The notes: generated by a model from the sequence alone, not told the origin. Counted from the first letter of the stretch, positions 16,947-17,219 are shown. The stretch: 64,000 nucleotides of DNA from Candidatus Oxydemutatoraceae bacterium (GCA_965226235.1 OZ245335.1:1580427-1644426); one strand, 5' to 3'. A program made the numbers and translations.

Positions 16947-17219
16947 ATGGAACTGACAGTCCAGCAATTTGAACAGTTTGACAACCGCCTTGAGCAATTT
17001 GACAATCGCCTGCAGGCTGTTGAACAAGGGCAACGAGACCTCGAGCAAGGGCAACGAGACCTTGAGCGCGAGGTCGCTGGCGTCAAGCAGGATCTCTCGC
17101 GTGAGATCGTTGCTTCCCAGGCCCGGATCATCCAGTGGGTGGTCGTTCTGTTCCTGGGCTCGACGGTGGTCGTCGCGACGCTCTCCGGCGTCTATATCTC
17201 GGTGCTGCTCGCGCGATAA
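16947..17219 (+). CDS. small coiled-coil protein with C-terminal TM anchor (DUF1640/CCDC90-like architecture); 2 x EQFDNRL + 2 x EQGQRDL heptads
   Basis: [43 protein letters not shown]…[38 protein letters not shown]. Paralog at 59346 with different repeat number. Confidence 0.55.

Follow-up and report, generated by a model that had tools for sequence, protein, structure and literature searches.

The window, meaning the whole stretch of 64,000 nt of Candidatus Oxydemutatoraceae bacterium DNA that was analysed, contains two paralogous genes, here called A and B, each encoding a small protein in which a heptad stalk is followed by a C-terminal transmembrane (TM) segment. The stalks are built from two types of 21-nt unit, one encoding EQFDNRL (FD type) and one encoding EQGQRDL (GQ type). 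The features of the two genes are:

16947-17219, + strand: gene A, 90 aa, heptad stalk and C-terminal TM segment, with G67V in a GxxxG motif
16971-17012, + strand: two FD-type 21-nt units of A (EQFDNRL twice), from Tandem Repeats Finder and unit scan
17022-17063, + strand: two GQ-type 21-nt units of A (EQGQRDL twice), from Tandem Repeats Finder and unit scan
17127-17213, + strand: C-terminal hydrophobic membrane segment of A, residues 61-89, with a Kyte-Doolittle 19-residue maximum of 2.27 at residues 61-79
59346-59660, + strand: gene B, 104 aa, product identical to the database protein P0001
59370-59474, + strand: five FD-type 21-nt units of B, from Tandem Repeats Finder and unit scan
59484-59504, + strand: the single GQ-type unit of B, from alignment in the 21-nt register and unit scan
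59568-59654, + strand: C-terminal membrane segment of B, residues 75-103, from family conservation and hydropathy

The initial annotation gave A two EQFDNRL and two EQGQRDL heptads and B five (E/G)QFDNRL heptads and one EQGQRDL, and both descriptions were reproduced exactly by the open reading frames, by Tandem Repeats Finder and by a scan with the units. Protein A starts with MELTVQQF, followed by its two EQFDNRL heptads, while the order of units in B is EQFDNRL, GQFDNRL, three EQFDNRL and one EQGQRDL. When the whole 64 kb was run through Tandem Repeats Finder the period-21 arrays were confined to genes A and B, with one array in B (59368-59473; 5.0 copies, 91% matches, score 177) and two in A (16969-17011 and 17025-17067, 2.0 copies each). 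The FD unit, GAGCAATTTGACAATCGCCTT, gave seven matches at up to three mismatches (two in A and five in B) and the GQ unit three (two in A and one in B), and in 100 shuffles 0 matches were obtained for either unit. Aligned in the 21-nt register, A differs from B by -63 nt, +21 nt and three point differences, of which three are nonsynonymous and none synonymous (E16 of A is G16 of B, A43 is V57 and V67 is G81), confirming that the two genes are nearly identical apart from the repeats. The 5+1 state of B was recovered, identical in every base, in L002, an independent metagenome assembly; for the 2+2 state of A, or its exact product, no independent record was found.

Judged from their sequence, both A and B are real genes. 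In A the Shine-Dalgarno sequence AGGAGG lies 10 nt 5' of the ATG, the units vary among themselves at third codon positions of the + frame (CAG/CAA, AAC/AAT, CTT/CTG), and dN/dS between lineages, computed on the conserved 15 N-terminal and 34 C-terminal codons, is 0.05-0.35. For paralogs within a genome dN/dS is ~1 (P0003 compared with P0010/P0014), a value based on very small numbers. Long open reading frames (87-101 aa and longer) are present on the antisense strand as well, and these are by-products of the coding in the + frame.

The soluble part of the proteins follows a single unbroken heptad register from Met1 to the membrane segment, with hydrophobic residues at 12 of the 18 a/d core positions in A and at 17 of 22 in B, and all other registers score far lower. 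In the FD heptad position a is Leu and position d is Phe, and in the GQ heptad a is Gln and d is Leu; with Gln at a and a Gly in the repeat, the GQ heptad is a poor canonical core. An AlphaFold monomer model, with the family alignment as input, consists of one helix covering residues 4-89 (mean pLDDT 85.4). Over the final 29 residues the Kyte-Doolittle maximum is 2.0-2.3 in A and B. This TM segment, also helical in the AlphaFold model, is the most conserved block of the family, with W64, L68, F69, G71, S72, T78, G81, V82, Y83, I84 and L87 invariant, and G67, nearly invariant in the family, completes a GxxxG motif in which A alone has Val. The unbroken register, the single modelled helix and the hydrophobic C-terminus all agree with the reading of A and B as paralogous coiled-coil/TM genes. 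Only the residues AR follow the TM segment, so the proteins are predicted to be tail-anchored. One heptad of a coiled coil corresponds to about 1 nm, and the stalk of B is 14 residues (~2 nm) longer than that of A. From homology, a parallel coiled coil formed by self-association is expected for the stalk and an inner-membrane location for its anchor, and the homology with MCUR1 together with the absence of a signal peptide indicates that the stalk side should be cytoplasmic.

The genes are parts of longer duplicated units, which in the case of A are surrounded by rearranged DNA:

16852-17358, + strand: copy A of the small-gene unit (promoter-like region, leader, open reading frame, terminator and tail), a direct repeat of 59251-59799
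59251-59799, + strand: copy B of the unit, located 5' of Zn-ribbon, aspS, NUDIX, yebC and ruvC genes, with 99.95% identity to L002 across 2 kb
16858-16886, + strand: putative promoter-like sequence TTGCAT-N17-AATAAT, read from the sequence; L003 and L005 have TATAAT at the aligned position
16931-16936, + strand: Shine-Dalgarno sequence AGGAGG of A, its GGAG core conserved in all loci
17224-17287, + strand: two GC hairpins after A with a T-run after the second (intrinsic-terminator-like), the second hairpin conserved with L004
15988-16858, - strand: FMN_red/WrbA-like segment, an inverted copy of 58293-59165 (98.6% identity) in the rearranged duplicate that holds A
17350-17810, + strand: decayed 3' end of ruvA and 5' fragment of ruvB, joined to the tail of unit A with ~4.4 kb missing compared with L002, then cut by an insertion sequence (IS)

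Outside the open reading frame the two units differ at 1 of 95 nt upstream and 1 of 139 nt downstream, and conservation with distant loci likewise covers ~95 nt upstream and ~140 nt downstream of the gene, which appears to be monocistronic. The promoter-like site was missed by a consensus scan because its -35 hexamer matches at only 3/6 positions. A structured regulatory RNA in the leader was considered and rejected: a hairpin predicted at 16886-16911 is not kept in the fold of an 11-locus alignment, which is weak (-4.35 kcal/mol, covariation term -0.54), and an Rfam scan of the whole window gave no match. Beyond the terminator, ~95 nt past the stop codon, the motif GGCACCAAAATTCGGATAAGCGG is found at 17311-17333 and 59752-59774. 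Weakly conserved relatives of it occur in L004 (5265-5289 and 6046-6070) and in L008 (7610-7640), in the latter upstream of a second paralog. The possibility of a dispersed element was set aside, the motif being present in the window only at the two copies, and it was treated as an inherited part of the unit.

When comparing the two loci, it was found that the order small gene, Zn-ribbon, aspS, NUDIX, yebC, ruvC (then ruvA and ruvB) is common to B, L002 and L011, and the context of B looks ancestral. Since the gene order in L002 and L011 matches B and the ruvA'/ruvB' fragments beside A are decayed, A would be the derived copy. Compared with L002, the fragments have 5% mismatches and numerous small indels; the tail of unit A is fused to ruvA at 17350-17358 through a CAG(C/T)CTGGC microhomology, and the IS truncating ruvB' carries a transposase (rve/HTH_32) at 17852-18865. 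All three novel junctions lie on imperfect 8-13-nt microhomologies, which points to illegitimate recombination or template switching. The wrbA gene beside A is intact (16149-16760, minus strand), and that beside B is frameshifted by a 2-nt indel. In A the open reading frame and signals are intact, yet Val replaces the nearly invariant Gly67, and on this sequence evidence copy A may be functionally compromised; B has two derived residues, G16 and V57.

Further repeats are found close to both loci. The inverted wrbA segment abuts an array (12396-16000) of three tandem copies of a ~1.05-kb gene (433, 328 and 344 aa) and a partial fourth copy (from 15783), which are 89-94% identical and belong to no Pfam family. 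A few hundred bases from locus B, the part of the Zn_ribbon_8 gene (59895-60257) that encodes its lysine-rich tail contains a 12-nt tandem repeat (AGAAGAAGCCTG, 2.1 copies) at 60187-60211; the counterpart of this gene in L011 (2552-2857) is shorter, 101 aa compared with 120 aa, making this a second repeat-associated allele difference.

A close family of 16 proteins of 72-111 aa was found in a large protein database, nearly all from ENA metagenome assemblies and from an IS-rich proteobacterial lineage; P0001, identical to B, is the sole member also present in NCBI (on a 2.1-Mb contig). For A and B no curated model was matched at threshold in Pfam, NCBIfam, PHROGs or PADLOC, and PF07798 (DUF1640/CCDC90-like) gave no match to them even at E <= 10. 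Within the family, PF07798 is the sole Pfam family matched repeatedly (7 of 16 members). P0009 passes its gathering threshold of 33.5 bits with 36.8 bits over profile positions 79-168 of 175, and matches below threshold were obtained for P0012 (24.7 bits), P0011 (20.0), P0007 (15.2), P0008 (14.9) and P0013 (13.6). These matches are always located at positions ~79-170 of 175, corresponding to the stalk and TM segment, and no member aligns to PF07798 before position 79 (head region ~1-78). Altogether 76 Pfam families were matched at E <= 0.1 among the 16 members.

An exhaustive profile search of 1.84 billion representatives revealed 102 proteins at E <= 1e-3. Many of these, 60-115 aa in length, are built like A and B: a MEITLE-type N-terminus is followed by heptads or 11-mers that are repeated in tandem and specific to the lineage, and by a TM segment of the WVVGLFIG type. 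Some are longer and contain the DUF1640 head, among them P0065 with 64.2 bits on PF07798; the head-bearing relatives P0038 and P0065 align to profile positions 1-53 and 1-105, respectively. Among 60 wider profile matches, 17 match PF07798, 8 DUF7310, 6 XhlA and 1 the Borrelia KID repeat, and coiled-coil composition inflates weak matches, as seen from the 42 Pfam families matched at E <= 0.001 by the same 60 proteins. The resemblance to DUF1640/CCDC90-like proteins proposed in the initial annotation holds for the family (the seven members, including P0009 above the cut-off, and the 17 wider matches) but not for A and B themselves, and with no PF07798 match to either gene the family link rests on their relatives. 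By sequence comparison A and B are best placed as a headless, divergent DUF1640 relative that is not a member by Pfam's own criterion. A sequence-profile search of the PDB gave only designed or viral coiled coils (E >= 0.01), and in the genome collection the single match, to a coiled-coil stretch of 43 residues from a Dehalococcoidia MAG (L001), was spurious. No relative is encoded in 2.9 million viral contigs, and none was found in JGI metagenome contigs.

Alignments of the family show 1-5 FD-type and 0-3 GQ-type units per protein, in one lineage also an 11-residue unit (EQGQRHLEQKL), and all length variation sits between the conserved N-terminus and the conserved TM segment. Repeat counts are therefore not uniform among relatives, and they vary between alleles of co-occurring strains as well. 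In metagenome assemblies at 7-18x coverage, repeat-collapse errors are possible. A and B, in the same genome, are ~1.2% diverged over ~1.36 kb, and both in-frame indels are located in the tracts, the sole other indel of the shared sequence being the 2-nt frameshift in wrbA. L003 and L013, the same locus in two strains of one sample, are 1.1-1.3% diverged and differ by one 21-nt GQ unit, and L005 and L006, also one locus in two strains, are 0.9% diverged and differ by a 12-nt indel in the tract. In L011, which is 99.46% identical to the B region of the window, a deletion of 13 nt (CAATCGCCTTGAG) inside a unit, lying between two CAAT microhomologies, shifts the frame so that the allele is called as a 219-aa fusion ORF. 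In L002, 0.05% diverged from the B region over 2 kb, the tract is unchanged. The allelic pairs L003/L013, L005/L006 and L011 with the B region come from co-occurring strains and differ in the gene only inside the tract. The tandem paralog pairs P0006/P0005 and P0014/P0010 differ in unit number, and P0015 is an N-terminally frameshifted paralog adjoining P0008.

It had been proposed from the window that in-frame 21-nt slippage changes the length of the coiled coil and leaves the membrane anchor untouched. Near-identical alleles that differ by exactly one 21-nt unit agree with this, but not all changes are in-frame or heptad-sized, as shown by the 33-nt/11-residue and 12-nt changes and the one 13-nt frameshift. 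Tract turnover amounts to approximately one change per 0.5-1% of genome divergence, a pace far above the expectation for a 100-nt stretch and far below that of classical phase-variable tracts.

The neighbourhood of the small gene differs in every genome examined: it follows priA in L008, adjoins pyrF in L010, precedes a PTPS gene in L004, stands beside a 16,143-aa giant protein in L003 and in L005 has an OLD/GajA-like ATPase on one side, preceding it, and a truncated relE/higA pair on the other. A mobile cassette was considered and rejected, as no terminal inverted repeats were identified and the direct repeats flanking the L003 and L005 copies are explained by tandem duplication. The window holds only two copies of the unit, the copies outside it lie in tandem or between direct repeats of the kind that tandem duplication would leave, and the junctions of A are microhomologies of a larger segmental duplication, which was likewise counted against a cassette. 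A link to a defence system was also rejected, since the OLD/GajA/AriA-like ATPase is found in the L005 context only and the PADLOC matches are coiled-coil noise.

Several of these neighbourhoods have features of their own. In L005 (6300-6846), and in the same way in L006, a second copy of the small gene abuts a 5'-truncated RelE/HigB-like toxin gene, which is followed by an intact HigA-like antitoxin gene (105 aa), and an OLD/GajA/AriA-like ABC ATPase (580 aa) is encoded upstream. A far more divergent second paralog is found in L008 (7778-8044) and L009 (5645-5911), 1.4 kb downstream of P0009; it starts with MEITLETIYQ, contains ELKA 4-residue repeats and DxLDSxID repeats and ends with a C-terminal TM segment, and between P0009 and this paralog lies a gene for a 269-aa multi-pass membrane protein, split in L009. 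The giant gene adjoins the small gene in both L003 (1-5306) and L013 (1-1341), its products being 16,143 aa and 9,933 aa with no Pfam match on record, and in L013 a DNA methylase gene and an HATPase_c_3 gene are inserted between the two.

Elsewhere in the window, 472-bp inverted repeats with 96.6% identity (7270-7741 and 9167-9638) flank a 449-aa ORF (7760-9109) with no Pfam match, and together they could constitute a transposable element, so far uncharacterised, that is bounded by long inverted repeats. Genes for the metabolism of methylated amines and C1 compounds are clustered at 19129-37035 and 47133-49325 and include those for a DAO-type dehydrogenase, GS-like and Glu_synthase-like enzymes (N-methylglutamate pathway), an ammonium transporter, sarcosine oxidase subunits, a GCV_T protein and a trimethylamine-dehydrogenase-like OYE enzyme. 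The cluster is repeatedly interrupted by IS copies (for example, 17868-18742 matches 27983-28886), and its gene content suggests that the host uses methylated amines. The AspRS encoded here is nearest to that of Pseudomonas aeruginosa, which makes the host a proteobacterium.

The explanation we consider reasonably probable is that A and B encode a tail-anchored, headless DUF1640-like stalk protein whose gene contains a hot spot for slippage or recombination, A being the derived copy. Each copy would be monocistronic and encode a small membrane protein with a tail anchor, in which a helical heptad stalk of 60-74 residues is continuous with a single C-terminal TM helix bearing GxxxG. The stalk would be encoded by the two adjacent tracts, FD type and GQ type, of near-identical 21-nt units. 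Slipped-strand mispairing or unequal recombination would add units to the tracts and remove them, slippage being inferred. As each unit equals one heptad, anchor and register would be kept. The same tracts would also give rise to out-of-register events, frameshift null alleles included, and such events argue for a mutational hot spot in a stalk under weak length constraint as opposed to a programmed switch. The length difference between A and B, of a kind typical for the family, would most likely be a by-product that is tolerated, with no programme behind it. Near-neutrality of the repeat variation is what we infer, and the all-nonsynonymous changes between A and B together with the paralog dN/dS of ~1, which could mean diversifying selection, speak against it, in tiny numbers. 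Copy A itself would sit in an incomplete duplicate of the B locus, reshaped by rearrangements at microhomologies.

Copy A may alternatively be a non-functional relic, the repeat difference reflecting drift in a decaying duplicate and being uninformative about the protein. The inverted wrbA segment, the ruvA'/ruvB' pseudogene fragments and the IS around it, its Val at position 67 and the absence from the record of any gene with its product would fit such a reading, which we nevertheless regard as unlikely: the reading frame, Shine-Dalgarno sequence, promoter-like region and terminator of A are intact with 1 nt of difference in each flank, and it is the wrbA beside A that is intact while the one beside B is frameshifted. 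Repeat variation is moreover seen between intact orthologous alleles elsewhere, so that the phenomenon is independent of A being dead. That the whole observation results from an assembly error or a spurious ORF is hardly credible, despite the long antisense ORFs and the proneness of repeats to misassembly, given the exact reproduction of B in an independent assembly, the 16 homologues with purifying selection in the + frame and the synonymous-type variation among units; for B this reading is essentially refuted.

Selection could also act on the variation itself. A contingency-type locus, in which the tracts are maintained because variants in stalk length and on/off state are advantageous in a changing environment (for example under phage pressure or a change of envelope architecture) and in which paralogs and alleles would reflect diversifying selection, would account for the finding that all copy pairs up to ~1% diverged differ in the tract (the 0.05% pair excepted), for the presence of null and intact alleles in co-occurring strains, for the purely nonsynonymous A/B differences and the dN/dS of ~1 within genomes, and for the multi-copy or tandem state of the genes in several genomes. 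The units, 21 nt in length and 1-5 in number, are nevertheless too long and too few to resemble classical hypermutable tracts, B and L002 have the same repeat number, in-frame changes alter length only, no consistent association with an invertase, a methylase or other switch machinery was seen in contexts that differ per genome, and the counts are too small for a selection test; we find such a locus rather improbable. A further alternative is an XhlA-like, holin-like or toxin-like protein of mobile-element origin that acts in lysis or membrane damage and whose gene spreads as a moron-like cassette. The architecture equals that of XhlA, B has weak matches to PF10779 XhlA (E = 0.056) and to phrog_1193 'hemolysin' (E = 0.0015), the best of the six XhlA matches among the 60 wider ones reaches E 4.2e-9, and the unit, which includes a promoter-like region and a terminator, is found in varied neighbourhoods, some with an IS, the truncated relE/higA module, the OLD/GajA-like ATPase or a Peptidase_M78 gene. 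Against this, no member reaches the XhlA cut-off, PF07798 matches are stronger and more numerous, neither holin nor amidase neighbours were seen, 0 relatives occur in the 2.9 million viral contigs, the PADLOC matches are noise, terminal repeats or a transposase tied to the unit are lacking, and several contexts are plain housekeeping ones (priA, aspS, pyrF), making this origin improbable.

A more far-reaching version, a distinct class of self-contained duplicating stalk genes with tracts selected for stalk-length diversity at the population level and for occasional nulls, we hold to be very improbable. If it were true, the protein would be a tunable molecular spacer or scaffold at the cytoplasmic face of the inner membrane, and the natural length series would offer a handle on the role of the DUF1640/MCUR1/CCDC90B (perhaps also Bdr) stalk. 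Under the preferred explanation, what is seen is ordinary repeat instability in a little-known relative of DUF1640/CCDC90, with no new mechanism. A small unannotated family of tail-anchored coiled-coil proteins (72-111 aa) is hereby defined and linked to DUF1640/CCDC90-like proteins, which are conserved from bacteria to mitochondria (MCUR1/CCDC90B) and whose molecular role is debated. The alleles differing in heptad number, together with a natural null, provide a ready length series for the question of stalk length, the tract is usable as a strain marker in metagenomes, and the frameshifted allele called as a fusion ORF is a warning for gene calling.

Among known systems, the DUF1640/CCDC90-like proteins (MCUR1, CCDC90B and prokaryotic homologues) share with A and B a coiled-coil stalk located directly before a C-terminal TM anchor, and many relatives also have lineage-specific tandem heptads in the stalk (LDAVENR, LDNVDQR, FEALDHR). 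A homo-oligomeric coiled coil, reported to be trimeric, with the stalk on the cytoplasmic or matrix side is expected of the family, and in MCUR1 the coiled coil before the last TM segment faces the matrix (bioRxiv 10.1101/2025.10.14.682030). In contrast to these proteins of ~150-190 aa, members of the present family are 72-111 aa long, and A and B are without the N-terminal head, their sequence beginning in the stalk and already in register. The DUF1640 stalk starts with a beta-layer motif, [aliphatic]-A-T-K-[polar]-[DE] (PMC4786415), and an ATK-type motif of this kind is absent from A, B and the family consensus.

In lifestyle the Bdr proteins of Borrelia are the closest documented analogue, with hints only of remote relatedness. 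They are paralogous small inner-membrane proteins with internal tandem repeats, forming a multi-copy family of unknown function (PMC4370689, PMC10016077), which A and B, with their predicted inner-membrane anchor, resemble, and an 18-kDa protein of B. miyamotoi is annotated as DUF1640 domain-containing (PMC6856195). A and B differ from them in having EQFDNRL and EQGQRDL repeats in place of KID/KIE tripeptide repeats, none of the 16 members matching PF02524 (KID repeat) at E <= 0.1, and in being located on the chromosome of a proteobacterium, unlike the bdr genes on spirochaete plasmids or prophages. XhlA (PF10779), from the lysis module of the Bacillus prophage PBSX, has the same size and the same arrangement of an N-terminal coiled coil and a C-terminal TM segment; at a gathering threshold of 34.7 bits, B scores 14.1 bits and A gives no match, and A and B differ from XhlA in having neither a lysis-cassette context nor viral relatives. 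In-frame gain and loss of repeats changes the length of coiled-coil rods also in streptococcal M proteins and in the stalks of trimeric autotransporters, which are large, surface-exposed and antigenically selected. A and B, in contrast, are proteins of 90-104 aa with 1-5 units per tract, and probably face the cytoplasm.
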